24,375 nucleotides of DNA from a virus (IMGVR_UViG_3300034685_000023:1-24375); one strand, 5' to 3'. Counted from the stretch's first letter, positions 1,364 to 24,346 are shown. The notes: generated by a model not told the origin, from the letters alone. A program made the numbers and translations.

Positions 1364-2641
1364 ATGAGATTGCCTTATTTAAACAATATAAACAATTTAA
1401 AGATAAGTCCATTGCTTTTCAGCGGGATAAACAAAAAAGAAATAATAAACGACAATGAAATATCAGATGGTCATAACCTATCAACAGAAGAAATACCTGC
1501 TATATGTCCTAGAGAACCTATGGAATCGATAAAAAGCTTAACAAAACCTAATTACTTGGGAGTTATTAATAACAAGCTAGTGTATGTAGATGGCACTAGC
1601 TTTTATTATGACAATCAATTAAAAGGTACTGTATCAGATACTAAAAAGTCCATAGTTGATTTCAATGGATATATAGTAATATTTCCTGACAAGAAGTATT
1701 ATGATTATATAAACAATGAATTTAATAGCTTTACTTGTCCTGATATAGATTATGCTGTGGTACATTACAATAGAATATTTGGAATAAAGGGAAGCGAAAT
1801 AAGAGCAAGTAAACTTGGAGATTTTAAGGCTTGGGAACAATTCGAAGGCACACAAATGGATAGCTGGGGAACAGATGTTTACTCTGTGGGAGATTTTACA
1901 GGTACTGTATCTTATCAAGACCATATAGTATTTTATAAAGAAAACAGTATGTACGAGTTATATGGATACACACCTAGTCAATTTAAGGTATTAGAAGTAG
2001 CGAAGATAGGCTGTATAGACAATAAAAGTATAACAGAAACACAAGGCATATTATTCTTTGCGTCAGAAACAGGAATATTCGTTTATACAGGCGGATTTCC
2101 TACAGATATATCAACAAACCTAAACATAAAGAATTTAAACAAAGCATCATTGATAGGAAATGGAAACAAGGTATATATATCTATTGATGGCACTACTTAT
2201 ATATATGACACAAACCTAAAGACATTCTTGCCTTACGCAGATTTAGATGTTTTATATTTTGCAAAAGATGATATGTATGTATACGCACTAACAACAGATG
2301 GTGAAATATATCGTCTAAATAGTGGAGATGAAATTGTAGAATGGAGTTTAACAACTAAACAATTTGATGATGGAGTATTTAATAAAAAGAGCATAAAAGC
2401 TATAAGGTTAAAAGCTATAATGGAAACAGGATCTGAAATATCTGTATATGTAAGCAGAGATAATAGACCATTTATTCAAGTAGGGCAAACAATAAAATTT
2501 CAGAATGAATATATAAAAACAAAAGAAGTTAAAATAACAATACCATTAAAAAGGGCGAGTTATTATCAAATTAAAATAACAGGCAAAGGCAAGTCTATAA
2601 TATATGGTGAAAAAGAGTTTGTAGTAGGAAGTGATAAATAA
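1364..2641 (+). CDS. Putative tail nozzle/stabilisation protein (P22 gp10 / T7 gp12-like beta-propeller)
   Basis: Start re-assigned to ATG 1364 (MRLPYL; GGTGAT RBS). Beta-rich, with motifs IRASKLGD...W and IGCIDNKSI as in podophage stabilisation proteins. Confidence 0.6.
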   Translation: MRLPYLNNINNLKISPLLFSGINKKEIINDNEISDGHNLSTEEIPAICPREPMESIKSLTKPNYLGVINNKLVYVDGTSFYYDNQLKGTVSDTKKSIVDFNGYIVIFPDKKYYDYINNEFNSFTCPDIDYAVVHYNRIFGIKGSEIRASKLGDFKAWEQFEGTQMDSWGTDVYSVGDFTGTVSYQDHIVFYKENSMYELYGYTPSQFKVLEVAKIGCIDNKSITETQGILFFASETGIFVYTGGFPTDISTNLNIKNLNKASLIGNGNKVYISIDGTTYIYDTNLKTFLPYADLDVLYFAKDDMYVYALTTDGEIYRLNSGDEIVEWSLTTKQFDDGVFNKKSIKAIRLKAIMETGSEISVYVSRDNRPFIQVGQTIKFQNEYIKTKEVKITIPLKRASYYQIKITGKGKSIIYGEKEFVVGSDK

Positions 2642-3348
2642 TGCAACTCAATGTGCCTAATATAACGATAACAGGAAACAACAACGAAGAAATAGTAAAT
2701 GTACTGCAAAGATATAGAAAAGAATTAAACTATTTATTAATGAACTTAGACTTAGATAACATGCCAAATGTAGCTAATAAACTGACAGACATAGAAGGCA
2801 ATTACTCTATAATACAACAAGAGGTAAATAGCATATTGTTAAGTGTAGGGGATATCGAAGGTAATGTATCATCTCTAGTGCAAACAGCAGAAGGACTTCA
2901 AACAAGAGTATCTACTGCAGAGGGCAATATATCTACATTAACTCAAACAGCTACTACACTACAAAGTAGAATAGAAACAGCCGAAGGAAATATATCAACA
3001 ATAACTCAAAACGTAGATGATGTTACTGTAGCTGTAAGCAAGAAAACTACCATAGGAGAGGTTGTCAATTATTTATCGGTATCTCAATCAGGTGTTAAAA
3101 TAAACGCAAATAATATAGATTTAACTGGCATAACCAGATTGTATTCTCCGACTATGAGCGATTCTTACGCTGAATTTTATGGGAGTTATTTCGCATTAGT
3201 TTTTAGAGGCGAAGAAATATTTAGGATACACCCAGATAGTATAGCTGGAACTGACATATATGAACCAACTGGTGCTGGATTGAGATTTTTTGGTGGAGTA
3301 TATTTCAATGACGCTGATGTTTATGGCTTAACTGTATCTTTCGCATAA
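2641..3348 (+). CDS. Tail-associated coiled-coil protein (needle/spike-like) with 21-aa repeats
   Basis: Four ~21-aa repeats (I/A)EGN(Y/V/I)S..(Q/T)Q followed by VKINANNIDLTG, a motif common in phage tail proteins. Confidence 0.6.
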   Translation: MQLNVPNITITGNNNEEIVNVLQRYRKELNYLLMNLDLDNMPNVANKLTDIEGNYSIIQQEVNSILLSVGDIEGNVSSLVQTAEGLQTRVSTAEGNISTLTQTATTLQSRIETAEGNISTITQNVDDVTVAVSKKTTIGEVVNYLSVSQSGVKINANNIDLTGITRLYSPTMSDSYAEFYGSYFALVFRGEEIFRIHPDSIAGTDIYEPTGAGLRFFGGVYFNDADVYGLTVSFA

Positions 3349-3360
3349 GGTGGTGATTTA

Positions 3361-4587
3361 ATGGCTACTAATATGGCTTATGATGCCAGGACATATACAA
3401 GCATATCAGTACACGCTTGGTATCAAGGTACAACAGCGGTAACAAAATGTATCATACAAGGACCCACAGCAGCAGTAACATTAACTACAACACCTAAAAC
3501 TAACTGGACTACTGACCCTCCTGTAAATTTTACCGGCTTAGCACCGGGACAATCATACTCATTTAAAGCATATTTTTATACATCAACAGACACATTAGTT
3601 GAAGAAACATCTACTTTTTATTTTACAACTCTTGAATATAGCTCAACTACAGTTAATATAAACACAACTGCAATAGGAGAAACATATTTAAACATAAGAG
3701 CTTTTTATAGAGGCAACACTGGCGTAACATATTGTGTTATATCTTGTGCAGGAAATGGAATGACCATAAGTGCAGGCGGAACAACATATGAATGGACTAC
3801 AGATTCGGTAACTTTTAGCGGATTAAATCCCGGAACATCATATACCGCATCTGTAACTTTTTATAATGGCTCTGGATATGTAGCTAGTACTAGTGGAACA
3901 TTTACTACACTAGCACCATCAGATACAACTCCGCCTACAGTAAGCAATGTAAATTTAACAGCAATACCAGTTACCAACGGATACAATGTAAAGATGACTT
4001 GGGCAGCTTATGATGATGTAGGGATAGTGAAGCATTGGCTATATAGAAGCTCTCCTAACACACAAAACTATGTATCGGTTGGGTATGATGTATCGGGAAG
4101 TGCAAGAGAATTTACGTTTACAACAGATGCTGATGGAAATTTATTTCAATCTGGAAAAACATATTATTTTAGAGTTAGAGCTGTAGACGCAGCAGGAAAT
4201 ATATCTACACAGGATAGTGGAACTAAGTCTATTTATATAAGTGCGACTAGACCGCAAAACTGGGCATGGGAATATACAATAGTAAGTGGAGGTAGTGTAT
4301 ATTCAGTAGTTGGGAAAAAAGTAAATATAATGAGAGCAGCACATTGGAATGACTTTACAACACGAATAAATCAATTTAGAGCATATAAAGGTTTATCACC
4401 TTATTCATTTACTCAAGTTACTAGCTCTACAAGTGGAAGTGCAGTTGTGTCTGCTATAAATCAAGCAATAAATGCAATAAATGATATGTTACCAGTAGGA
4501 AGCAAGATGTCTACAATAACGGCATCAAATAAAGTCGCTGCAAGTATATTTATAAATTTAAGAGATAAATTAAATAGTATCCAATAG
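3361..4587 (+). CDS. Fibronectin type III domain-containing virion protein
   Basis: Two ~90-aa related repeats (WTTD..(V)F(T/S)GL.PG.SY...F.TL) plus a third FN3 (DTTPPTVS...YYFRVRAVDAAGNIS); Thr/Ser-rich. Confidence 0.75.
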   Translation: MATNMAYDARTYTSISVHAWYQGTTAVTKCIIQGPTAAVTLTTTPKTNWTTDPPVNFTGLAPGQSYSFKAYFYTSTDTLVEETSTFYFTTLEYSSTTVNINTTAIGETYLNIRAFYRGNTGVTYCVISCAGNGMTISAGGTTYEWTTDSVTFSGLNPGTSYTASVTFYNGSGYVASTSGTFTTLAPSDTTPPTVSNVNLTAIPVTNGYNVKMTWAAYDDVGIVKHWLYRSSPNTQNYVSVGYDVSGSAREFTFTTDADGNLFQSGKTYYFRVRAVDAAGNISTQDSGTKSIYISATRPQNWAWEYTIVSGGSVYSVVGKKVNIMRAAHWNDFTTRINQFRAYKGLSPYSFTQVTSSTSGSAVVSAINQAINAINDMLPVGSKMSTITASNKVAASIFINLRDKLNSIQ

Positions 4588-4589
4588 GG

Positions 4590-4812
4590 GTCAACTACCC
4601 AACGACTAAAGTCGTGGGCTTGATAGCCCTATGTTGACCAGGCTAAGGTTTGAAACAAAACCTACGTTATCTATGTCATGACACCCTAGGATGCCCTCCT
4701 AGTTCTAGGCTCTGTCGTATAGCATTAAACAGGTGTAGTGGGTTAAGCCAGTGTGTTATACGTGTAAACATAGATAACATTGCCGAGGGAGATGTTACCT
4801 GCGTAAGCAGAG
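4590..4812 (+). ncRNA. omegaRNA (HEARO-like) scaffold; guide predicted from upstream flank ~4570-4589
   Basis: GTCAAC(4590-95)/GTTGAC(4633-38) stem; GTTATCTATG(4666-75)/CATAGATAAC(4769-78) long-range helix; CCCTC(4694-98)/GAGGG(4785-89) pseudoknot; terminal CTGC-GTAA-GCAG hairpin; directly upstream of iscB. Confidence 0.88.
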
Positions 4813-4827
4813 AAAGGAGAAATTCCT

Positions 4828-6108
4828 ATGGTATTTGTTTTAGATGCAAATAGAAAACCATTATCACCTTGTCATGAAGCAGTTGCAAGAAAATTGCTTA
4901 AACAAGGTAAGGCTGCAATATTTAGAAGATACCCATTTACAATAATTCTTAAAAAATCAGTAGAAGACACTAAAAACAAGCAAGAATATAGATTAAAAAT
5001 TGATTATGGTAGTAAGCATACAGGATTAGCTATACTACAAAAAAACAATGTAATATGGTTAGCTCAAATAGACCACAGAACAGATATTAAAAAGAAACTT
5101 GATGATAGACGTATGTTTAGACGCAACAGAAGAAATAGAAGAACAAGATATAGAAAGCCAAGATTTTTAAATAGAAAAAGAAAAGAAGGATGGATACCAC
5201 CTTCACTTGAAAGTAGAGTTAATAATATAAAAACATGGGTTAATAAGTTACAAAAATTAATTCCATTAACTCATATATCTTATGAAAATGTTAAGTTTGA
5301 TACTCAATTAATGCAAAATCATGAAATAAGTGGTATTGAGTATCAACAAGGTACACTTCAAGGATATGAAGTTAGAGAATATTTACTTGAAAAGTTTGGT
5401 AGAAAATGTTGCTATTGTGGAAAAGAAAATGTTCCATTAGAAATAGAACATATAATACCAAAATCAAGGGGTGGAACAAATAGAGTTGATAATCTTTGTT
5501 TATCTTGTAGAGAATGTAATCAAAGGAAAGGAAACATGACTGCTGAAGAATTTGGTTATCCTGATATACAAAAACAAGTTAAACAAACATTAAAGGATAC
5601 TTCTGTAGTTAATTCTACAAGATGGAAAGTTTATGATGTACTTTGTAATAGTGGTTTAGAAGTTGAATGTGGTACAGGTGCTTTGACTAAAATGAATAGA
5701 ATCAAATTAGGATTGCCAAAAGAACATTACTTTGATGCTTGTTGTGTAGGACAAAGTACACCTGATAAATTATATTTTAAGACAAAAGATGTTTTGTATA
5801 TAAAAGCAAAAGGTAGAGGGAGTCATTGTAGAACAAATTTAGATAAATACGGCTTTCCGAGAGGATATTTAGCAAGACAAAAATATTTCTTTGGTTTTCA
5901 AACAGGAGATATGGTTAAAGCTGAAATACCAAAAGGAAAATATAAAGGCATTTGGTACGGAGAAGTTGCATGTAGAAAATCAGGTAGTTTTGATATTAAA
6001 GACAAGGAAGGTCAAAGAGTTGTACAAGGTGTAAATCATAAATATTTTTCAGTTGTACAACACTTTGATGGGTATAGTTATAGAAAGGAGGCAGCAATTC
6101 TTACGTAG
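4828..6108 (+). CDS. iscB: RNA-guided endonuclease IscB
   Basis: N-terminal PLMP-like (KPLSPC), RuvC-I (LKIDYGSKHTGLA), Arg-rich bridge helix (RRMFRRNRRNRRTRYRKPRF), RuvC-II (YENVKFD), HNH (CCYC...IEHIIPKSRGG...NL...CRECN), RuvC-III (HYFDA); RBS AAAGGAGA. Confidence 0.95.
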   Translation: MVFVLDANRKPLSPCHEAVARKLLKQGKAAIFRRYPFTIILKKSVEDTKNKQEYRLKIDYGSKHTGLAILQKNNVIWLAQIDHRTDIKKKLDDRRMFRRNRRNRRTRYRKPRFLNRKRKEGWIPPSLESRVNNIKTWVNKLQKLIPLTHISYENVKFDTQLMQNHEISGIEYQQGTLQGYEVREYLLEKFGRKCCYCGKENVPLEIEHIIPKSRGGTNRVDNLCLSCRECNQRKGNMTAEEFGYPDIQKQVKQTLKDTSVVNSTRWKVYDVLCNSGLEVECGTGALTKMNRIKLGLPKEHYFDACCVGQSTPDKLYFKTKDVLYIKAKGRGSHCRTNLDKYGFPRGYLARQKYFFGFQTGDMVKAEIPKGKYKGIWYGEVACRKSGSFDIKDKEGQRVVQGVNHKYFSVVQHFDGYSYRKEAAILT

Positions 6109-6180
6109 CGTGTTTAAAATACGCAATTCCTCCACGTGGCTAAAGCCAGTGGCTTCCTTGCGTAAGAATTTGTGATAAAG

Positions 6181-6333
6181 TTGAAATATGTAATTGAAAT
6201 GGAAGAATATGTTTTAAACAATTTAAAATTGTTTTTAGAAAGGACAACTATGACAGGTAAAGAAGTTGGTGCATATGCAGAAATACTAAAGTGTATATCA
6301 GAAGCTAAGCCAAAAGAGGTTGGTGATGAATAA
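6181..6333 (+). CDS. Small phage protein, 50 aa (TTG start; RBS disrupted by the IscB element)
   Basis: MKYVIEMEEYVLNNLKLFLERTTMTGKEVGAYAEILKCISEAKPKEVGDE; stop overlaps next ATG (TAATG); reconstructed empty site gives AGGGGTGATAAAG-TTG. Confidence 0.7.
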   Translation: MKYVIEMEEYVLNNLKLFLERTTMTGKEVGAYAEILKCISEAKPKEVGDE

Positions 6334-7772
6334 TGGCTTTATCATATTTTGACCAACAATATTTAAACCCAGAAGAACAAAAACAAATGCTTGAAATTCA
6401 GAATAACTGGGCGAACGCATCTCCACAAGAAAGAGAGAGTTATCACACATTAGCTGAAAGTATGAGAGCAAAGTATGGATATAGTGGTGGTGTATCAGGC
6501 AATGAATATATACAAATAGGTACTGTTCAACAACCTACTATAAATCCATACGAAAGTCAATGGAACGATACACTTCAAAACTTATACAAAGATATAAGCA
6601 CAGCACAATATCAACCTAGTCCATATGAAGCATTAATAGCACAATCTATATCACAAGCTGCTAATAGAAAATTTGAATACGACCCAAATACAGACCCTGC
6701 TTATCAAGCATACAGACAAAGGCTTATAAGTGCAGGTGAAAGTGCATATCAAGACAATTTAGCAGGCTTATCGGCTGCTACAGGTGGCAGACCTAATACT
6801 TGGGCTGCTAGTGTGGCGTCACAAGCTAGAAATCAGTATATGCTACAAGCCGAAACAGCAATGCTTGATTTTGAAGATAGAGCATACAGCAGATACCAAG
6901 CCGAAACAGATAATTTGTATAAATTTATATCTGTACTAGACAGTATGGATACGAAATACTACAACAGATGGAGAGATAGCATAAACGATAAAAAAGAGCT
7001 GTTTAATATGGTAATGCAATTAGAAGATGCAGACTTTCAAAAGTATCAATATCAAGTTGAGCAGTCTTGGAAACAGTTTGACGCAGAAACAGCAAACTTC
7101 CAACTTGCACTAGACAAAAAGAAGATGGATATACAAAACGCATTAGATAGAGTAGAGATGCTTGGATATGTAGATAATAAAGCGGCTGCTGTTTTAGGAG
7201 TACCTACAGGAACTCTATCAAAGACAGCAAGAGAAAGAGCTGAAGCTATGGAAGATTACATCAAAAAGCAATCAATAGATTTAGAAACATATAAAAAGCA
7301 AAAAGCGATAGACTACGAGTATGATATGAAACTCATCAATGCAAAAGTATCGTCAGGTAGCAGTAGCGGGAGTGGTAGTAGTAGTTCAAAACCACTCACA
7401 ACAACTGAAATAAAAGCAATAGGCAATGAAACATTAAACTTTGACAAACTAGTTAAATCAAAAGACTATCAATCTCTTAAACACGACGCTTACAAGATGG
7501 AATCCATAAACGATTTTATAGACAGCGTAATAAAGAAAGGGCAATATGGCTCTTATGGTGCTAGAAGCTTAGAAATAGCAGAAGCTATATTAAATAATGT
7601 AATGCAACACGAAGAATATCAAAGAGTATTAAATGCTTATCAAGGTGCAGTAGAAGCAGCTCAAAAAGGCTCTAAAGAATATATGCTTAAAGACTATGAA
7701 AGTAAAAGTGTAAAGACAAGCAACACAAATGCTCAATCTAAGAAAGGCAAGATAGGATATAGTCCTAACTAA
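6333..7772 (+). CDS. Putative internal virion/DNA ejection protein
   Basis: 479 aa, Gln/Ala/Tyr-rich helical with FEYDPNTDPAYQAY motif and Ser/Gly linker; lies immediately before the giant protein, like podophage ejection proteins. Confidence 0.55.
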   Translation: MALSYFDQQYLNPEEQKQMLEIQNNWANASPQERESYHTLAESMRAKYGYSGGVSGNEYIQIGTVQQPTINPYESQWNDTLQNLYKDISTAQYQPSPYEALIAQSISQAANRKFEYDPNTDPAYQAYRQRLISAGESAYQDNLAGLSAATGGRPNTWAASVASQARNQYMLQAETAMLDFEDRAYSRYQAETDNLYKFISVLDSMDTKYYNRWRDSINDKKELFNMVMQLEDADFQKYQYQVEQSWKQFDAETANFQLALDKKKMDIQNALDRVEMLGYVDNKAAAVLGVPTGTLSKTARERAEAMEDYIKKQSIDLETYKKQKAIDYEYDMKLINAKVSSGSSSGSGSSSSKPLTTTEIKAIGNETLNFDKLVKSKDYQSLKHDAYKMESINDFIDSVIKKGQYGSYGARSLEIAEAILNNVMQHEEYQRVLNAYQGAVEAAQKGSKEYMLKDYESKSVKTSNTNAQSKKGKIGYSPN

Positions 7773-7784
7773 AGGTGGGATAAT

Positions 7785-10700
7785 ATGATTGATTTAAACA
7801 AATATAAAATAACTACTGGCTCATTGTCGCCTGAAGTGAAATCTTTAATAGATAGAAATAAGCAATTTTCTGAAAGACTTAAAGACAAAGATGAGGAATA
7901 CAGGAAAAGACAAGAAGAAAAAAGAATACAAGAATTAAAACTTAAGCAAGAAGCATTGCAAAGATATAATGGCGACAAGTCATCAAATGGAGTATTCGAT
8001 AAAATAGACAGGATAGAAAACACTACAAACCCTGTATTAACAAGTAAAACAAATGATAGAGCAACACAAAAATACGACAGCAAAAGATATGCAAAGAGCT
8101 ATGCTTATCAAAAGCAAAACTTTGATTATGCAAATGCACTATCCAATGATGTAGGCACTATATATGCCTTTAAGAGAAGCATGGGGAAATCTGATGAAGA
8201 AATAAAACAAGAGCTTGTACCAAAAGCAAATGATTATGAAGTGGAACAAAAGTTGGCGGAAATTGAAAACAAGCTAAAACAAGGCAATGAAGGTGTATTG
8301 TACAACATACAAGAAGGCTACCTTGAAAAAGAAGTGATGGACTTATTATCAAAAGAAGCTATAAAAAGAATGAATGGATTGCCTAACAAACTAGACGAAG
8401 TAAATAAATTCATAGAAGAACACCCAGAAATGTCGCTGAGTGAAGAAAACGACAACGCATTATATAAAGGTATGAGGTTCACAGGCGAATTTGTAAGTCA
8501 AACCAAAAACTCAATGGCTTATGCCTCTAAAGATTTAGACTCTTGGGCAACCGCAGCTGCTATAATAGTTGGTGGAATAGCTGTAGGTGCTGTAACAGGC
8601 GGTACTGCTTTGCCCGCTTATGTAGGTGTAACAGCTTCTGCACTAGCTACATTATCGCCTTTCGCAGCTATGGGATTTGGAATGAGTTATGGTGCAGCTA
8701 AAAAGATGGCAGAGGTTGAAGGTGGGCTTGCATACAACGAATATATACAACAAGGAATACACCCTGACATAGCAAAAGATATGGCACAGACAGTAGGTGC
8801 TATAAATGGCGTATTAGAAATGGTAGAGATGGGAACTCTCATAACTTGGCTACCCGGTGCTAGTGTAGCTAAAGATTTAGCTATGAAGAAAGTCAATTCA
8901 GAGATGACTAAGAAAATATTAAAGACAGCCGCAGCATATGGAATAAACTTGTCAAGCAATATGCTTCAAGAAGCTGCACAAGAAAGCACAACTATGTTAG
9001 GATTGACGCTTTCAGATTATATGCAAAACGCACCCAACCCTAACACGCTAGATGGTTTAAAAGAATTAAAGAAAACAATGACATCAGACGAGTATTTAAG
9101 AAGAGTAGGGGATAGTGCTATAGGTGCTGCCGAGAGTATGTGGCTGCTACCTATAGGAAGTGGACTTATAAAAACAGGAACCAATCAAATACTAGAAGGT
9201 AAGGCTAAGATAAAGCAATCAAAAGGCTTTTACACAGCAGAAGATGTAGAAACAGACGCCTATGTTCAAGAGCAGAAAAAGCTATTGCTTGATGATGGTG
9301 GAGTAATAGATACATTAAGTGAAGCTGTAATAAAAGAATCAAACGCAACAGGTCTTAAATACTTGACAGCTTTAGAACCTATGGTAGAAGCATTACTTGC
9401 CAGAGAAGATTTAACCAATGGCGAAAAGCAGCTATTGTCTAAAAAATACGAACAGCTTAAATCAGCTATAGAAACAGCTAAAGAAAAAGTAGTTTTAGAC
9501 AATCCAGATATAATATTCGAGCCTACGTCTAAAAGCGAAATAGCAGGGAAAGTCTTAAATAGAGAAGTGCCTTTCATAACACTAGACAAAGACATATATA
9601 TAGACTATTACAAAGACGCAGAAGAAAAAGGCATATTGGATAAAGTAATAGATATGACAAACAAAGGCAAGACATATTCGGAAATAGCAGATGAAGTTGC
9701 TAAAATGCTTCCTAGAGGAAAGAAAAATGTAGTAGACGCATCTGTATATATAAGTGCTATAGAAGCTGTGAACAGGGAAATAAACGCACAAAAGCAATAT
9801 AACTTAATTGAAAACCTAGATAAAATGACACAACTGATAAATGCTAAAACAATAGAAGAAGAAACAATAGAGCCACCTACACTAGAACAGAACACACAAG
9901 AAGAACAAACAACAACAAAAGAACAACCTATGCAAGAAGAACAAACAACAACAGAAGAACTTGCTACAGAAACCACACTCGAAGAAGAAACTCAACCTAC
10001 AGTAGAAGCTCAACCTGAAGAAGAAATAACAGCAGAAGAACAAAAGACACTTGAAAAAGTTACAGAGCCAGTTGAAACAAAAGATGGCAAATACTCTCCA
10101 TCAGACATAGTAAAAGTGCCTGTGGAAGATATAAGAATAGACCAACAAAGATTTCAGTTTAGAGAAAGCGGGACCACTAATAAGTTCAGCGACACAGACT
10201 GGAAAGATGAGCTATCTGGTGTATTACTATTATGGGAAGATGACAAAGATGGCACTTTGTATGTAGTAAATGGACATCATAGATTATTATTGGCAAAGGA
10301 AAACAATGTAGACTATATAAACGCAAGAATACTAAAAGATGTTACAGACAAAGAAGCAAGAGCTATGGGAGCTTTGATAAACATAGCAGAGGATAACGCA
10401 ACAGCAGTTGATGTAGCTAAATACATCAATGAAACAGGAAGCACTAGAGAAGAACTGATAAAACTAGGGATATCTCCTAGAAGTAAAATTCTAAGAGATG
10501 GTGAAGCATTATCTAAGCTGTCAAAACCACTATTTAGAAAAGTGGCGACTGGTGCTATGAGCATAGAAAATGCTGTTATTATAGGAAACGAGTTGCCTAA
10601 CAACGAAGAAGCACAAGCATATATTGCTAAAAAGATAAACGAGCTAGAAGCAAAAGATAAAATAATAACTCCATCAATACTTGAATCTTTAATCAGGATA

Positions 10701-13700
10701 GAACAGTCAAGCGGGTTTATTGAAGGTGAACAAATAAACCTATTAGGAGAAATAGATAAGAAATCATATGCTTACGAGAAATCCACAATAGTTGATTATG
10801 TAAAGAAACAGCTAAAGAATAAAAAGAAACTATTAAAGAATGTAAGTAAAGAAACAAACGCACAAATATTAGAAAGTCTTGGCAACAAAGTCAACATAGA
10901 CGAAAACATAAAGCAAATGGAAAGCACAGACCTTGCATTGTATCTATTAGATAAAACAGCGTACTATAAATCAAGTATAAGCGACATGTTCAATGAATAC
11001 GCAAAGGAACTTGCAATTACAGACAAACCATTGGCTGTAAAAAATAAAGCCTTGAACGACTTTATAGCGAAGATAGAGAATGGAGAACTGTTAAACGAAG
11101 TATTCGGAAACAATGAAGTTGTGGAAGAACTAGAAAATCAAGCAAGTTTATTGGAAGCACAAACAGAATTGCTAGGGGAAAAGATGGTAGAAGTAGTAGA
11201 ACAACCATCAGTGGAAGTTGTAATAAACCCTAAAGCGTCACAGCTTCTTGTGGAAGAAATGCAACCAGTATTAGATGCTATGTCTAAAAACCCTATATTT
11301 AATAACTTGATTGTAGAGTTTAATGGCAAGGAAGAAAAAATAGTAAAACTAACTAAGAAGGAGTTGGAAAAGTATGGATACGACAATGCAGAAGCAGGAG
11401 AATATAGAATCAGTGGATACCTTGAAAGACCTAGAAGAAGAAGGAATGGAGATAACAGCAATAACAATAAATCAAAACTAGTCCTTACTAATTCAGCAAA
11501 CAAAGGAACTTTACTGCACGAAGTGATTCACTATGTAGAGCAAATAATACCAGAGATAAACCCAGACCTTGCAAACTTGATCGATGATTGGGCGAATGAT
11601 GTTTACGAACAAGCAAAAGAACAAGGCATAGAAGTATGGGATAGAAAAGAATTACTAGCAAATGCACTTACTTTAGGTGAATTTGGATATGCAAGTGATG
11701 ATATAGCAAAAGCAAATTTAGTAGAAGTAGACCCTGATATAATAGCAGACTTTAAGACCATAGTAAGTCCTGAATTTATAGAAGCTGTAAAAGGTAAGAA
11801 AAAGTCAAAGAAGAACAAACAAATAAAACTTAAATATAAAGGCTATGCTGAAAGACAGTTAAAAGAAAGCACTAAAAAAGAGGATATAGTAGAAGCTAAA
11901 ACAGATAGACTGTCTGAAATATCGAATAAACTTGAGAATTCAATCAATGGTGCCGCCTATTATTCAGCAGACCAAATAAAAAGCATAATGGCCATAAAAA
12001 CGGAAGAAGGAATGTATGACTATATCATATTTGAAAATGGAGAAGATATAGCAGATGATACAGTAACTTTAGACAAACTATTGGATATCATACAAAAGAA
12101 CGAGCTTATATACGACAAAAAAGAAATACACGAAGAACTACAGCAATATGATAGAACAGTCGTAGAAAACATATTCAACGGGATTGATGTATTTGACTTT
12201 GGAAAAGTTTTAGACGCAGCTAAATCAGGCAATATAAACGCAAGTGATTATGATTTAATATTAAGCAAGTATGTAGACAGAAACCAAGCAAACCTATTGA
12301 TAGACGAAATAAGAAAAGCGTCTAAAACAGGTTTTAATTTGCCTAATGATAAAGTATCTATGACACAATTCTTAAACAGGTTTTTTGATGATGGAACAGA
12401 CGATACAATTAAAATAGTCTTAACAGAAAACAACAAATATGCTATTGCAAAGCTTAACTTTGAAAATCAAGATACAATTCTTGATATGAAAATATTCGGA
12501 GAGTATGACACATTAAAGAAAGCAATAGACGCATATTTAAACACAGAGCTTAAAGTAGACGCAACTAAGGAAGAATTCTACAAAGCATTTAAAGAAGATA
12601 TGATTTATCTACGTTCTAAAGATGGGGAACATTCAAAATATGTCATATCAAACAGATACAAAGAAGATGTGGTATTAAACGAGCTAGACAACTACACTTT
12701 AGCTTATGCATACAAATACAACAATATACACAAAAACTCTAAACTATCTACATTGACTGAATATACAAAAGAAAAGACTGGTGGAGAGCCTGTATATATT
12801 GACATAAGCAAAACAATAAAATACGAAGATGCAATACAAAAGTACCCTGACGACCCATTATTCACACAACATTTATTACAAGATGGGTACACAGCAATAA
12901 CAACAAAAGACACTATAATACCATTGGCACCTATGTTTGTTAAGCCTTTGCACACTACAACGCTATATACCTTCAGCGAAGTAGGACAAGACAAGATGAT
13001 AATAACAAAGAATGGCTCATTGCTATTGAATGGATTTAATAGGACTTTCTTGTACAAAGACAAGATATACAAATACAATGTAAAAGTAAAAGACAGCTAT
13101 TCTTTGAAAGACTTAAACAGAGTGGATACTCCAATATATATAGAAAATGTAGACAAATTCGACAAAGATGTGGCAAAAGCTATACTGGAAGCAGAAAAAA
13201 CAATGCACAGCACAGTATATCTAGATGGGAAGAAATATACAAACAGCAAAGCACAAATGCCAAAATACGCAGGAGAAATAATAGACCCTGACGCTGTCAC
13301 GATATCATTTACAACAACCACAGATTTAATGAACAAACTTATTGAATTTGATGGCATACCTGTACCGTCTATAGCAATAGCAAAGGCACCGCCTAAGTCA
13401 GCTGACATGGGCAATAACATAGTGTTCTTGTTTAAAGCTGAAACAATAGACCCTGCTGTAAATAAAGGAAACACAATATATTCGACTGAAATGTTCACAA
13501 GGGAATTTCCAGTAAGAACACCTAATGGAGTAAATGATGTAATCAAAGAAGTAAAAGATTATATAATAAGTAGAACAGACCATACAGTAATCGCAAGAAA
13601 GATGTTAAACTATTACAACTTTGATGAAACATACGACAGTGTACAATTCTTTACAACAGTATATTCAAATGACCCAATAGTTAAATATGTATACGCTGTG

Positions 13701-16700
13701 GATAATGGAATATACAAATACGACAAAGCTATACTTCCTGCAGATATAAATTCTCAATCAAGAGAAGCAATGGCAAAAGCACTGCATAAATATGTATCTG
13801 AAATAGATCCTAGAGATGTGGGACAATGGCTCTTGGACTTAGTGTATAAGAAAGACACGAGAATGTATACAAACAAGGCTACAAACTTTGTAGACCCAAC
13901 AGTGCAATCATACTTTGCAGACTTAAAAGCAGACAACCTAGCAAGAATGTTTGCAAACGCACCTAAGCCTGACATAATGAATGGAACAATAGACCTTGCT
14001 ATGCTAAAGGCTTTTTATGCGAAGAAATTTGAAAGTTTTGCAGAAGCACTAGACCACAGGGATATGCTTGTGGCCAGAGGTGGAGAAACAAATATGCTAG
14101 GGTATACGCAAAAAGCATATGAGTTGATAGACAAAATAATAAAAGATAACAAAGAAAATATAGAAAACTATATATCTTCTGAAAAACAAGAGTCGACAAA
14201 AGATATACACGACCAATTAAAAGACCCTGAAAAGTTTATAAAGGAAAATTTCCTAAGCCTTATAGGGCTATATTTCCAAAATAAAAAGACCAATAAATTC
14301 GATAAATTCGGATACTGGTATGACGACCACGCAGTACCTAAGCAAGACCCTCGCAGAGCTTTTCATATAATGGGGCTAAAAATAACAGAAGAACACCTAA
14401 ACGAATTAGAAACGATACTGAATGATGTTATCAACGAAACAAAAACAAACCAATTTGATGCTGTAGTAGATAGAGTAATACCATACAGTGAAATTGCAGC
14501 CGCTATAGTGCCTAAGAATATAAATCCAGAAGTTGTAAAATTCCTAAAATCTAGTGGAGTAAAAGCAATAGTGCCTTATGGCGAGAACTCTTGGAACGGA
14601 CTAGCAGAAGCTGTTATGAAAGACAACGAACTCTTGTACCAGCTTAAAAAGAATACATCAGATAAGAGAAGGAAAGACTACGACAATAAACTTGTAAAAG
14701 ATACAACAGGAGAACCTTTGACATACAAAGGCAAGACTTTTGACGGGGAAGAAACAGAAGGGAACTATTATGTAATAAGCGAAAACCCATATATCGTAAA
14801 AGACGAAAAAGCGTTCAATGACTTAACCTATAAAGATTTAAGCGATGGAGGATATGACGCTGCAATACTTGTAGACGTAGATGGAAACCCTATAAAAGTA
14901 AGACCTATAACACAACAACAACTTATACTTGCAGAACCTATGGAAGCTATGGATTTTAATGAATTACCTGAATATTATCACATAAAAGAAACAAGAGATT
15001 ATAAAGAGAGAAGTTGGGGGAAAACAGTAAGGGATATGAATATCAACGACCCTTGGATAGTAGATATACTTACTGATACTCAATTTTGGTATGATGTAAA
15101 ACACAACACAGACACATTTCTCTTAGCAGGTAAGATACTTCAAGAAAAGGGTATAGACTATGTAGAAGCTGTACTTGATTCAGGAATAGAAGTAACACCT
15201 GAAATAGAAGCAGCAGGTTTGATACTGATTGAATATTATAGACAAAATGGGAATAAGTCAGAATTTCTAAACGCTATGGAGAGAGTCGCTATTAACGCTA
15301 CTACTGCAGGACAGATAATTCAAGTGCTGTCTCAATTTGGCAAAATGTCTGCAGAAGGCAAGATAAACTATGTTAAGAGAGAAGTCGAAAAACTTACAAC
15401 CCCTAAGGATAAAAGAATTGTAGAAGAAAAGACAAAAGAAATAAAAGAAAAGACAGTAAATATTTTAAAAGAAACTCTAGATGATAAAAGACTGGGCGAC
15501 TTCTTAGAAGAAAACAAAGAAGAAATGGCAAAAGTAGCAGACTATGTAGAACAAATTTCTATGACGCCAGAAGAACAAATAGAAGCGGAGAAACCAACAG
15601 TAACTAAAAAAGAAACAGATACTATAGTTGACGAAGCTGTCAAAAAGGTTAAGCAAGAGAGAGCAACAAAAGGGCAGTCAGAAGGCGTTCAACAGACAAT
15701 GAATATACCTAGAGATAAAGACTTTTTAAGCAAGAACAAAGACAAGATTGTAGAGATAGTCAGAAATCATTACACCAATCCAGACAACAAGAGCTTAAAG
15801 ACAAAGTTAAAGAAAATAGGACTTACAGATTCAGAAGCTGCTATTGTAGTAAGATACACAAAAGAATATATTAGAAGTAGCTCTGAACAAAAACTGCTAA
15901 GTGAAATAAACAATACTGGCGTTCAAGATACTTGGCTTAGCAAATTAATATTCCAAAATGTGCTAGATGGCGACTTTGGACAAAGTTTAAAAGCGTTAAT
16001 AGCAAAGAAAGAAAGAGTGCCTTATTTATCTCAGGACCTTATAGAACATATCTATAAGATGTCAGATATAATAGACAACATGCCTGATGGCAAAGACAAA
16101 GACAGAGAAATTGCTAAACTTATCAGAGATATAAACGAATATTTACCAGTATCAAACGCAAGGAAAATATCTACATTGCACATAATGGGTATGTTATTAA
16201 ACATTAAATCTGCACTTAGAAACATATTGAGCAATAGAGGATTTAGAAATGTAGACACCTTTGCTGTACAACTGTTCGGGACACCTATAGATAAAATAAT
16301 AAGTATGAAGTCAAAGAGAAGAACAGTGCTATTTAGACCTATAGCATCATATAACAATCAAAGAAAATACTATAAGACAGAAATGCCTAACGCAGTATAC
16401 GAACAAAGACAAGGTATAGATTTTAGCACTATTGATGATAAATTCTCAAGTGGACTAGATATAGGTGATTTATCAAGAACATCTATAAGAAGAACATTCC
16501 CTAGAAATTCATTACTAGGAAAGGCTGAAACAGCTATGAATGTTTTAATGAGAGCGCCAGATAGAGCGTCTTGGGCTGCATCATATTTCGACTCTTTAGA
16601 TATGCAGATGGAATTGAAAGAAAAAGGGTACAATAAAGATATAACAGAAGAAGAAATGTCAGAAATAGCTAATGCAATAGGGTTATACAGAACATTCAAT

Positions 16701-17963
16701 GATGATACAAAACTATCCATTATGTTTAGAGAAATGAAAAGAACATTAAATGTAATCGGATTCGGGAAAAGAGAATTTGGTATTGGAAATATCATTACAA
16801 CTTTCCCAAAAACACCTGCTAATCTTATTATGAGAGGGCTAGATTATAGTCCTATAGGATTGGTTATGACTACGTTTAAACTATTGCACGATACATCAGA
16901 CAATGTATATCTAAGACAAAAACTTGCTGTTGAAGGTTATGCAAGAGCAATAGCTGGTACTGGTCTAACAGGAATAGGAGTTTTGCTATACAATATGGGC
17001 ATCATCACATCAGGCTCTCCTGAAGATGAAAGCAAATTGAGAAAGTTTAAACAGTCTATGGGATTAAGAAACTACTCAATAAACATAAGTGCTATACTAA
17101 GGCATTTACAAGGGCAAGAAAATGCAGGAGATTTAAGAAAAGGTGACAAACTATTCTCTTATGACTGGTTTTTACCTTTGTCATTCCCATTATCTATTGG
17201 TGCTGACATAGCAAGTGGAGAGTCTAGTGCAATATCCGTAGCAGATAATTTATTGAAATCTTTACAAGCAGGACTTAATTTATACACAGACCAACCATTA
17301 TTTACAGGGCTTGAAAGATTATTTGGTAGTGAAGATTTAGGAAGCGGTGTTACACAAACACTCAAAAGTGTACCATCTAGTTTTGTTCCAAGTATAGTAT
17401 CTCAACTAGCACAATTTACAGATGGAATAAACACAGACCCATACACAGGCTACTCCATACCAGAACAAACAGTCAATCTTATCAAAAATAGGCTGCCAGT
17501 GCTAAGAGGGACACTACCACAAAGAGTATCTCCATTAGGAGATGGATTGGAATACTATACAGATGACGACACATTCTACACTAAATTCTTGAAAGCTTTC
17601 TTATCTCCGGGGATAGTAACAGAATACAATCCTAGTGATGAAGCACAGTTTATAATGGATTTAGTCGAGTCTACTGGAAATGAAGAATTAATACCACCTA
17701 AACCACAAAAACAATACACTTTAGAACTTGATAATGGAGAAAAAGTGATAGTAAAACCTACTCCTGAAGAATGGGAAGAATGGCAAAGAAGATTTGGCGA
17801 AAACATCAAGAAAGACATAAAATATATTATGAGAAACTATTCAGGTAGGCTTACGAAAGAAGAACTTTCAGACGAAATAAACAGAGCTATAAGTGAAAAC
17901 AAAAAAGAATTTAAGGAATATTTGTTGCAACAGCAAAATAAAAAAGGGTCTAGCAATCGCTAG
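7785..17963 (+). CDS. Giant (3392 aa) polyvalent / internal virion protein with ParB-like, HEXXH zincin-like and degenerate ART-like domains
   Basis: Single 10.2-kb ORF with RBS AAGGTGG. Hydrophobic Gly/Ala segment aa ~254-305; acidic linker ~aa 690-770; ParB/Srx motif LYVVNGHHRL (N829); TLLHEVIHY (H1245); C-terminal helical region resembling podophage ejection-protein C-termini. Confidence 0.75.
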   Translation: MIDLNKYKITTGSLSPEVKSLIDRNKQFSERLKDKDEEYRKRQEEKRIQELKLKQEALQRYNGDKSSNGVFDKIDRIENTTNPVLTSKTNDRATQKYDSKRYAKSYAYQKQNFDYANALSNDVGTIYAFKRSMGKSDEEIKQELVPKANDYEVEQKLAEIENKLKQGNEGVLYNIQEGYLEKEVMDLLSKEAIKRMNGLPNKLDEVNKFIEEHPEMSLSEENDNALYKGMRFTGEFVSQTKNSMAYASKDLDSWATAAAIIVGGIAVGAVTGGTALPAYVGVTASALATLSPFAAMGFGMSYGAAKKMAEVEGGLAYNEYIQQGIHPDIAKDMAQTVGAINGVLEMVEMGTLITWLPGASVAKDLAMKKVNSEMTKKILKTAAAYGINLSSNMLQEAAQESTTMLGLTLSDYMQNAPNPNTLDGLKELKKTMTSDEYLRRVGDSAIGAAESMWLLPIGSGLIKTGTNQILEGKAKIKQSKGFYTAEDVETDAYVQEQKKLLLDDGGVIDTLSEAVIKESNATGLKYLTALEPMVEALLAREDLTNGEKQLLSKKYEQLKSAIETAKEKVVLDNPDIIFEPTSKSEIAGKVLNREVPFITLDKDIYIDYYKDAEEKGILDKVIDMTNKGKTYSEIADEVAKMLPRGKKNVVDASVYISAIEAVNREINAQKQYNLIENLDKMTQLINAKTIEEETIEPPTLEQNTQEEQTTTKEQPMQEEQTTTEELATETTLEEETQPTVEAQPEEEITAEEQKTLEKVTEPVETKDGKYSPSDIVKVPVEDIRIDQQRFQFRESGTTNKFSDTDWKDELSGVLLLWEDDKDGTLYVVNGHHRLLLAKENNVDYINARILKDVTDKEARAMGALINIAEDNATAVDVAKYINETGSTREELIKLGISPRSKILRDGEALSKLSKPLFRKVATGAMSIENAVIIGNELPNNEEAQAYIAKKINELEAKDKIITPSILESLIRIEQSSGFIEGEQINLLGEIDKKSYAYEKSTIVDYVKKQLKNKKKLLKNVSKETNAQILESLGNKVNIDENIKQMESTDLALYLLDKTAYYKSSISDMFNEYAKELAITDKPLAVKNKALNDFIAKIENGELLNEVFGNNEVVEELENQASLLEAQTELLGEKMVEVVEQPSVEVVINPKASQLLVEEMQPVLDAMSKNPIFNNLIVEFNGKEEKIVKLTKKELEKYGYDNAEAGEYRISGYLERPRRRRNGDNSNNNKSKLVLTNSANKGTLLHEVIHYVEQIIPEINPDLANLIDDWANDVYEQAKEQGIEVWDRKELLANALTLGEFGYASDDIAKANLVEVDPDIIADFKTIVSPEFIEAVKGKKKSKKNKQIKLKYKGYAERQLKESTKKEDIVEAKTDRLSEISNKLENSINGAAYYSADQIKSIMAIKTEEGMYDYIIFENGEDIADDTVTLDKLLDIIQKNELIYDKKEIHEELQQYDRTVVENIFNGIDVFDFGKVLDAAKSGNINASDYDLILSKYVDRNQANLLIDEIRKASKTGFNLPNDKVSMTQFLNRFFDDGTDDTIKIVLTENNKYAIAKLNFENQDTILDMKIFGEYDTLKKAIDAYLNTELKVDATKEEFYKAFKEDMIYLRSKDGEHSKYVISNRYKEDVVLNELDNYTLAYAYKYNNIHKNSKLSTLTEYTKEKTGGEPVYIDISKTIKYEDAIQKYPDDPLFTQHLLQDGYTAITTKDTIIPLAPMFVKPLHTTTLYTFSEVGQDKMIITKNGSLLLNGFNRTFLYKDKIYKYNVKVKDSYSLKDLNRVDTPIYIENVDKFDKDVAKAILEAEKTMHSTVYLDGKKYTNSKAQMPKYAGEIIDPDAVTISFTTTTDLMNKLIEFDGIPVPSIAIAKAPPKSADMGNNIVFLFKAETIDPAVNKGNTIYSTEMFTREFPVRTPNGVNDVIKEVKDYIISRTDHTVIARKMLNYYNFDETYDSVQFFTTVYSNDPIVKYVYAVDNGIYKYDKAILPADINSQSREAMAKALHKYVSEIDPRDVGQWLLDLVYKKDTRMYTNKATNFVDPTVQSYFADLKADNLARMFANAPKPDIMNGTIDLAMLKAFYAKKFESFAEALDHRDMLVARGGETNMLGYTQKAYELIDKIIKDNKENIENYISSEKQESTKDIHDQLKDPEKFIKENFLSLIGLYFQNKKTNKFDKFGYWYDDHAVPKQDPRRAFHIMGLKITEEHLNELETILNDVINETKTNQFDAVVDRVIPYSEIAAAIVPKNINPEVVKFLKSSGVKAIVPYGENSWNGLAEAVMKDNELLYQLKKNTSDKRRKDYDNKLVKDTTGEPLTYKGKTFDGEETEGNYYVISENPYIVKDEKAFNDLTYKDLSDGGYDAAILVDVDGNPIKVRPITQQQLILAEPMEAMDFNELPEYYHIKETRDYKERSWGKTVRDMNINDPWIVDILTDTQFWYDVKHNTDTFLLAGKILQEKGIDYVEAVLDSGIEVTPEIEAAGLILIEYYRQNGNKSEFLNAMERVAINATTAGQIIQVLSQFGKMSAEGKINYVKREVEKLTTPKDKRIVEEKTKEIKEKTVNILKETLDDKRLGDFLEENKEEMAKVADYVEQISMTPEEQIEAEKPTVTKKETDTIVDEAVKKVKQERATKGQSEGVQQTMNIPRDKDFLSKNKDKIVEIVRNHYTNPDNKSLKTKLKKIGLTDSEAAIVVRYTKEYIRSSSEQKLLSEINNTGVQDTWLSKLIFQNVLDGDFGQSLKALIAKKERVPYLSQDLIEHIYKMSDIIDNMPDGKDKDREIAKLIRDINEYLPVSNARKISTLHIMGMLLNIKSALRNILSNRGFRNVDTFAVQLFGTPIDKIISMKSKRRTVLFRPIASYNNQRKYYKTEMPNAVYEQRQGIDFSTIDDKFSSGLDIGDLSRTSIRRTFPRNSLLGKAETAMNVLMRAPDRASWAASYFDSLDMQMELKEKGYNKDITEEEMSEIANAIGLYRTFNDDTKLSIMFREMKRTLNVIGFGKREFGIGNIITTFPKTPANLIMRGLDYSPIGLVMTTFKLLHDTSDNVYLRQKLAVEGYARAIAGTGLTGIGVLLYNMGIITSGSPEDESKLRKFKQSMGLRNYSINISAILRHLQGQENAGDLRKGDKLFSYDWFLPLSFPLSIGADIASGESSAISVADNLLKSLQAGLNLYTDQPLFTGLERLFGSEDLGSGVTQTLKSVPSSFVPSIVSQLAQFTDGINTDPYTGYSIPEQTVNLIKNRLPVLRGTLPQRVSPLGDGLEYYTDDDTFYTKFLKAFLSPGIVTEYNPSDEAQFIMDLVESTGNEELIPPKPQKQYTLELDNGEKVIVKPTPEEWEEWQRRFGENIKKDIKYIMRNYSGRLTKEELSDEINRAISENKKEFKEYLLQQQNKKGSSNR

Positions 17964-22799: not shown

Positions 22800-22886
22800 T
22801 CACTTTGCATAAAAATCATTTTCTTCTCTATCTTCAAGTGCATAATTTCTTGCACCTATTGTTGTAAAAACATTTGTCTTTTTCAT
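22800..22886 (-). pseudogene. Duplicated 5' fragment (28 aa) of a DNA adenine methyltransferase-like gene
   Basis: MKKTNVFTTIGARNYALEDREENDFYAK*; the first 27 codons are identical to those of the 24332 ORF. Confidence 0.75.
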
Positions 22887-22900
22887 TTCAATCTCCTAAA
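22805..22900. repeat. 96-bp exact direct repeat, copy 1
   Basis: Identical to 24251-24346. Confidence 0.95.
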
Positions 22901-24128: not shown

Positions 24129-24332
24129 GTATACATTATAGTCATTCTTTTTTAATATTTCGCTTATATGCCCCATTCCACAAGCACATTCCCATATGTT
24201 TTGGTTAAATTTTTCAATCTCTAAAAGTAATTCTACAGCTTTTGGCTCAGTTGCATAAAAATCATTTTCTTCTCTATCTTCAAGTGCATAATTTCTTGCA
24301 CCTATTGTTGTAAAAACATTTGTCTTTTTCAT
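24129..24332 (-). pseudogene. N-terminal fragment of DNA adenine methyltransferase, fused in frame to the downstream zinc-finger gene
   Basis: DFYATEP (motif X) and IWECACGMGHIS (SAM-binding motif I), ending at YNVY before the catalytic NPPY motif. Confidence 0.75.
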
Positions 24333-24346
24333 TTCAATCTCCTAAA
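24251..24346. repeat. 96-bp exact direct repeat, copy 2
   Basis: Identical to 22805-22900. Confidence 0.95.

Follow-up and report, generated by a model that had tools for sequence, protein, structure and literature searches.

An intact ISC2 transposon carrying iscB and its omegaRNA in a phage late region, a likely selfish RNA-guided drive

Analysis of a viral record of 24,375 nucleotides (IMGVR_UViG_3300034685_000023:1-24375; hereafter the window, meaning the whole stretch analyzed) revealed an intact, non-autonomous ISC2 transposon of the IS200/IS605 group at positions 4590-6171 (+ strand), which is likely a selfish RNA-guided drive that would cut element-free sites and be copied into them. 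The element spans 1582 bases, lacks a target duplication, and was delimited both by an empty allele of the same locus and by ends common to copies elsewhere. It is probably a functional element of the ISC2 IscB kind, and the balance tips slightly toward homing between phages actually taking place. An original prediction made from the sequence alone had placed the ends at 4590 and 6171 and had described an omegaRNA beside an intact IscB, without tnpA and inserted in sense orientation in a phage late region; these points were all borne out.

The omegaRNA scaffold (4590-4798, + strand) matched the complete HEARO model of Rfam (RF02033, model positions 1-211) with 159.6 bits compared to a cut-off of 83, the only Rfam match in the window at the gathering score. 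This RNA lies directly upstream of iscB and its start coincides with the element end at 4590, where it abuts the predicted guide derived from the flanking DNA (4570-4589, + strand). The iscB gene (4828-6108, + strand) encodes a protein of 426 amino acids (aa) that scored 451 bits against the NCBIfam guided_IscB model (cut-off 175), contained the Pfam RRXRR and HNH domains, and matched PHROG 2214 along its full length. Its layout includes an RRXRR/PLMP-like N-terminus, a split RuvC domain (D59/E153/D303), a bridge helix, an inserted HNH domain (E207-H208/N222/N231), and a four-cysteine site. Residues D59, E153, H208, N222, N231, and D303 plus the four cysteines were invariant in 11/11 aligned homologues and H300 was kept in 10/11. 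Homology to IscB-omegaRNA complexes of solved structure, comprising TbaIscB (PDB 9K30), HfmIscB (9K2Z), and OgeuIscB (7UTN/7XHT), ranged from E 4e-47 to 3e-27, the window IscB being shorter than these and belonging to a clade without a close solved member. An IStron (group I intron plus insertion sequence) was rejected, as no group I intron matched and HEARO was the sole Rfam match, and a CRISPR-associated IscB or type II-D Cas9 was rejected by the lack of regularly spaced repeats within 3300-7800 and, for the latter, by a Cas9d model score of 58 bits where the cut-off is 375. No self-target (8-16 guide bases with at most one mismatch, then GTGA) was present in the window or in the pieces of a second record of the same phage (G006).

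Both ends of the element fold as hairpins with TTTA loops (z about -3.3 to -4.0 compared to shuffled sequences). On the bottom strand, the transposon right end (4590-4623) includes the guide tetramer CAAG, a hairpin that doubles as the 5' stem of the omegaRNA, and the cleavage tetramer TGAC, and the left end (6125-6171) includes a 15-base spacer, the guide tetramer GAAG, and its hairpin. The adjoining GTGA (6172-6175, + strand; TCAC on the bottom strand) is the transposition target and the predicted target-adjacent motif (TAM) of IscB, and is also the 3' half of an interrupted ribosome-binding site (RBS). The proposed pairing of CAAG with TGAC and GAAG with TCAC extended to related copies, with the tetramer rule fitting 54 of 56 distinct omegaRNA-side ends (53/56 having TGAC/CAAG itself) and 56 of 58 distinct far ends (TCAC/GAAG in 53/58 and TCAT/GAAA in three). 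The left pair also co-varied, as GTGA occurred with GAAG and, in three rows from a distant clade that probably represent one evolutionary event, ATGA occurred with GAAA. The junction has a 2-base GT ambiguity, and the empty allele alone cannot separate a cut between GT and GA from one before GTGA; its placement was chosen by the tetramer rule, which together with the ATGA/GAAA co-variation favors the cut before GTGA. In this rule the third tetramer pair joins last base with last base. PMC5934647 gives the tetramers of IS608 together with the other two pairing contacts.

The element is mobile, with dozens of related copies retaining intact ends at unrelated sites with unrelated guides. Loci returned by scans with the IscB protein numbered 29 in viral sequences, 31 in genomes, and 79 in metagenomes, the last set coming from the best 80 of 145. 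Copies of nearly full length aligned from 4583-4590 to 6164-6185 and were divergent outside. With anchors on internal element words only, conservation at the left boundary was 95-100% across 4590-4594, 64% at 4589, and at most 50% further out (22 distinct copies), while at the right boundary it was at least 91% up to 6170, 67-76% over GTGA, the register there being blurred by spacer indels, and at most 52% from 6177 (33 copies). Distinct junctions at unrelated sites (50 right and 43 left) shared the element ends, and GTGA followed 49 of the 50 right ends with a search pattern that admitted RTGR only. The fifth base past the junction was A in 26, T in 15, C in five, and G in four of the 50, so that from the originally proposed target GTGA(TA) the GTGA was retained and the '(TA)' fell outside the conserved motif; the nuclease could itself need a motif longer than GTGA. 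Two close copies without GTGA at the right end, L064 (ATGA after a shortened end) and L106 (GTGG), show that target use is occasionally imprecise or relaxed. Minimal derivatives without coding sequence that retain the ends were also observed (L164:1500-1625, L165:1500-1547, - strand) and resemble palindrome-associated transposable elements, the left and right hairpins being fused in L165. At L016:2709-2760 / L015:2748-2760, one copy had a remnant of a right end from the same family in front of it and another had a 12-base tandem duplication of the left end.

The empty allele came from a wastewater sequencing run (X6) of a study different from the probable source of the window. In a 348-base contig from this run (depth 7), position 4589 is followed immediately by 6172 and exactly the 1582 bases of the element are missing, with 209 and 119 letters either side of the junction and two ambiguous letters. 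The contig had 13 differences from the window, of which all nine on the left side lay at 4449-4536, while the 53 bases at 4537-4589 that include the predicted guide were identical and followed by an intact GTGA. The junction foreseen for a related phage was thereby found, the guide sequence beside it was unchanged, and the predicted target in the empty allele is free of escape mutations. RNA splicing was rejected as the origin of this contig based on the absence of an intron family match, the 13 differences, and the joining of the element's left end to a different flank in the same run. Runs X1-X5 and X10 yielded no listed empty allele, but rare variants are lost from contigs and the junction was uncovered in X5 and X10. 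Protein searches of viral contigs with the C-terminus of the FN3-domain protein encoded upstream of the element recovered its own record plus two distant relatives (31-35% identity) and no empty allele, and a search with a downstream 479-aa protein recovered its own record only.

Overlap of the window with both ends of G006 (43.1 kb) pointed to a circularly permuted phage genome of approximately 44.0 kb, with the 899 window bases outside G006 containing only open reading frames (ORFs) below 100 aa. Pfam and PHROG matches identified terminase, portal, capsid, tail, internal virion, and lysis genes on the + strand, an order that supports a sense insertion in the late region, and, on the opposite strand, replication genes, among them one for an Erf-like annealing protein. 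No integrase was seen among the scanned phage ORFs of at least 100 aa. The gene upstream of the element is the FN3-domain phage gene (3361-4587, + strand; 408 aa by ORF call with a Pfam fn3 match), whose final codons and stop are the predicted guide source and likely read-through transcript. Downstream, a 50-aa ORF with a TTG start (6181-6333, + strand) had its RBS split by the insertion and, judging from the sequence, appears to be a real gene, with no match in Pfam or PHROG. Further along the window, the product of 7785-17963 (3392 aa) contains a PBECR5 nuclease domain, is matched in one stretch by PHROG 21, and is probably a polyvalent virion-delivered protein. A 96-base direct repeat with identical copies at 22805-22900 and 24251-24346 (approximately 1.45 kb apart) flanks a pentapeptide-repeat gene and part of a methyltransferase-like ORF.

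No Y1 transposase was found in the element or in G006, and the activity could be provided by the host or a co-infecting phage. A candidate was present in a 185-kb phage record (G007) whose name has the same sample number as G006, encoded within a tnpA-tnpB element whose ends follow the same geometry (15-base spacer, TTTA-loop stems, and near-identical right-end tail). This record (L170-L175, L155) also carried six HEARO RNAs; four are accompanied by iscB-like ORFs from different families (35-92% identical), among them an iscB copy 92% identical to that of the window, and two lack such an ORF. Based on published biology of the family, a Y1 transposase acting in trans would insert the element via single-strand transposition of the bottom strand. 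Late transcription through the FN3 gene would then add approximately 16-20 flank bases as the guide, and no terminator-like site was found on the + strand within 2500-8000. The IscB-omegaRNA complex would cut the guide sequence followed by GTGA, a combination present once the element has been excised or in a sibling phage that lacks it, and would spare its own junction in which the guide is followed by GTCA. Recombination repair, potentially via the Erf-like annealing protein of the phage, would restore or spread the element and any phage benefit during co-infection would be a by-product. Both the read-through guide and cutting of the empty allele are likely in the window given the published behavior of IscB elements (Meers 2023), and would not be peculiar to this phage.

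The element and its predicted behavior resemble several known systems. ISC2 elements with targets cut between GT and GA are described from Firmicutes and archaea (Kapitonov, Makarova & Koonin 2016, PMC4810608), including ISC2-1_AF (Anoxybacillus flavithermus) and ISC2-1_YF that likewise carry iscB only, with a GTCA-type 5' terminus, hairpin ends, a GTGA target, and no duplication. The window element differs from these in being phage-borne and in that a cut before GTGA is favored. Its IscB was 76-77% identical to homologues in Anoxybacillus isolate genomes. Most iscB elements lack tnpA and have a guide transcribed from outside the element, they tend to be inserted in the same direction as the upstream gene, and cleavage of the empty joint by IscB drives re-copying (Meers 2023, 10.1101/2023.03.14.532601). 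Among these, ISGst5 with GstIscB is alike in being non-autonomous, having a right-end omegaRNA upstream of iscB, a read-through flank guide, a sense bias, and a TAM equal to the transposition target, and in cutting of the empty joint by GstIscB. In contrast, GstIscB is chromosomal and has the experimentally tested TAM TTCAT (ATGAA on the other strand), whereas GTGA is a predicted TAM, and the own junction of ISGst5 differs from its TAM by two bases compared to one in the window element.

Drive by an element has also been described for IS605 TnpB, acting independently of TnpA between plasmid copies (Mears 2025, 10.1101/2025.02.20.638934), and is similar in that the element-bearing replicon cuts element-free copies of itself within one cell. 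That study concerns TnpB and plasmids only, and its text contains neither the word 'phage' nor 'IscB'. A 2026 review (PMC13565253) uses the term 'non-restorative transposon homing' and names co-infecting phages as a theoretical target; no demonstration of such a drive in phages was found in the literature searched, which lacked most subscription papers. The free-standing T4 homing endonucleases SegF and SegB cut a co-infecting relative and are inherited by repair as the window element would be (PMC13565253), although they have protein-coded recognition and a fixed locus, whereas the window element is RNA-guided, re-programmed at each insertion, and still a transposon.

Several observations weigh against an active drive at this locus. 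The empty allele consisted of a single contig of the length and depth given above, from a library labeled as RNA-seq and flagged as probably DNA. Empty and filled alleles were never together in any of the seven runs examined, making co-infection hypothetical. Self-sparing requires strict discrimination between G and C, as the element's own junction is one base off the predicted TAM. Intact catalytic residues are no proof of activity, since an IS608 TnpB was found to be inactive (Meers 2023). Finally, the ends of the tnpA element in G007 had no blastn match to the window element ends and agreed in geometry alone, for which reason its TnpA is regarded as a candidate only.

The first alternative is that the element is a passive hitch-hiker that recently landed at a tolerated intergenic site and either lacks useful expression or never encounters an empty sibling, so that no homing between phages takes place. 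This is rather unlikely, but fits the origin of the filled and empty alleles from different studies. It also fits the depth of the element's left end, which in the two source runs was several times that of the phage flank and attached to other contigs, such that copies elsewhere could supply insertions. Promoter signal was likewise not above chance, with 17 found compared to 24.2 expected and the combined promoter and terminator scan not exceeding shuffles. No RNA data set was listed as containing the phage, an absence that does not bear on its expression. Against passive carriage, the ORF, RNA, and ends are all intact and insertions show the sense bias expected if guide expression is selected. 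The landing-site set behind this bias contained 28 other distinct insertions with both ends and a background of 482 GTGA sites. It omitted the element's own copies (L001 and L004), L064 with its deviant end, L092 and L093 that share a common right end, the nested or chimeric L091 and L096, and near-duplicate flanks. Insertions lay outside long ORFs in 23/28 cases compared to 127/482 background sites, although the crude ORF caller inflates the noncoding background. Noncoding insertions faced the next gene in 19 of 20 assignable cases compared to 77/111 in the background (p=0.014).

A second alternative is a phage-specialist clade, in which this IscB family spreads mainly from phage to phage by RNA-guided drive with RBSs as safe, transcribed landing pads. 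This is doubtful, and its fullest version, in which the IscB clade with GTGA targets is a Firmicutes-type phage specialist that lands at RBSs, uses the site as its guide, drives during co-infection, and obtains its transposase from large phages, is a shade more doubtful still. The six HEARO RNAs on the 185-kb record are in its favor, as is the position of insertions relative to genes. A start codon of a frame of 50 codons lay 4-13 bases on in 15/28 insertions compared to 38/482 background sites and, considering noncoding sense sites, followed GTGA in 14/19 compared to 21/77 (p=0.0003). A motif from the 16S rRNA tail was used for duplex energies, and pairing with rejoined sites had a median of -9.05 compared to -5.5 kcal/mol for the background, the insertion weakening it to a median of -4.95 kcal/mol. 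For the window site, the energies were -12.5 kcal/mol rejoined and -5.1 kcal/mol after insertion.

The base before the target offers a simpler cause of this pattern. It was G in 15/28 insertions and C in none, compared to 114/482 and 72/482, respectively, in the background. The resulting GGTGA is part of the extended Shine-Dalgarno sequence, and insertions often split RBSs largely because this preferred target resembles one. IS608 TnpA prefers C at +1 after the cut on the active strand (PMC5934647), which corresponds to G before GTGA in the window element and matches this preference. Active RBS targeting was not supported, as with G at -1 fixed the excess was not significant (11/14 compared to 12/23, p=0.17), and the simplest cause of the landing bias is known chemistry plus survival. 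No paper on an RBS or start-codon insertion bias was found in the literature search listings. In a 57% identical, Fervidobacterium-type clade (L017, L041, and L043), right ends have GGAG before GTGA and, unlike the clade of the window, it appears to rebuild an RBS for the downstream gene.

The phage bias required by a specialist clade was examined in 35 metagenome loci at least 83% identical, scanning 91 flanking ORFs of which 34 had a Pfam match. The duplicate L118 was left out, and a few pairs represented the same site (L067/L079 and probably L125/L126). Virion, packaging, or lysis matches (terminase, portal, tail, or lysis) occurred at 11/35 loci compared to cellular-looking matches at 3/35 (PilZ, SmpB, and RemA-like), such that close copies lay mostly among phage-like genes, which is suggestive. 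Copies at least 85% identical occurred on only three metagenome-assembled genome (MAG) contigs among 185,579 species genomes, one of them belonging to a bin in which the contigs that carry the element look like phage. Against specialization, multi-copy elements break chromosome assemblies and bias flanked copies toward phages, the host may be uncultured, and the 76-77% identical relatives are in Anoxybacillus isolates. A host search left the element end unmatched in 60 relatives of G001. Cultured phages gave no close copy, with one partial DNA match and IscB present in 19 records all below 60% protein identity. Twelve records of cultured Ralstonia phages in two size classes (GenBank, H3-H14) contained a full-length IscB-like gene 49% identical to that of the window, annotated as an HNH endonuclease or hypothetical.

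The suggestion in the original prediction that the element serves as a phage-competition system is very unlikely when taken to mean a domesticated weapon, co-opted to exclude sibling phages like a free-standing homing endonuclease: the late region, sense orientation, intact target in a related phage, and close copies among phage-like genes accord with it, but the element has kept its transposon ends, its site is polymorphic, the same element occupies dozens of unrelated sites with unrelated guides, two distant FN3-gene relatives have no element behind the gene, and the insertion weakens the predicted RBS of the next ORF. Given the same wide distribution with intact ends, any homing would be a selfish drive of the element itself.

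The element type, target, and mechanism are already published and the locus is unsurprising in itself. Its value is as a natural test case with defined ends, guide, predicted TAM, empty allele, and candidate transposase, and it contributes a compact IscB (426 aa) whose predicted TAM, GTGA, has to be told from GTCA. [quoted passage not shown] If the phage bias also holds in long reads, phages would be a main reservoir of this clade of Cas9 ancestors.

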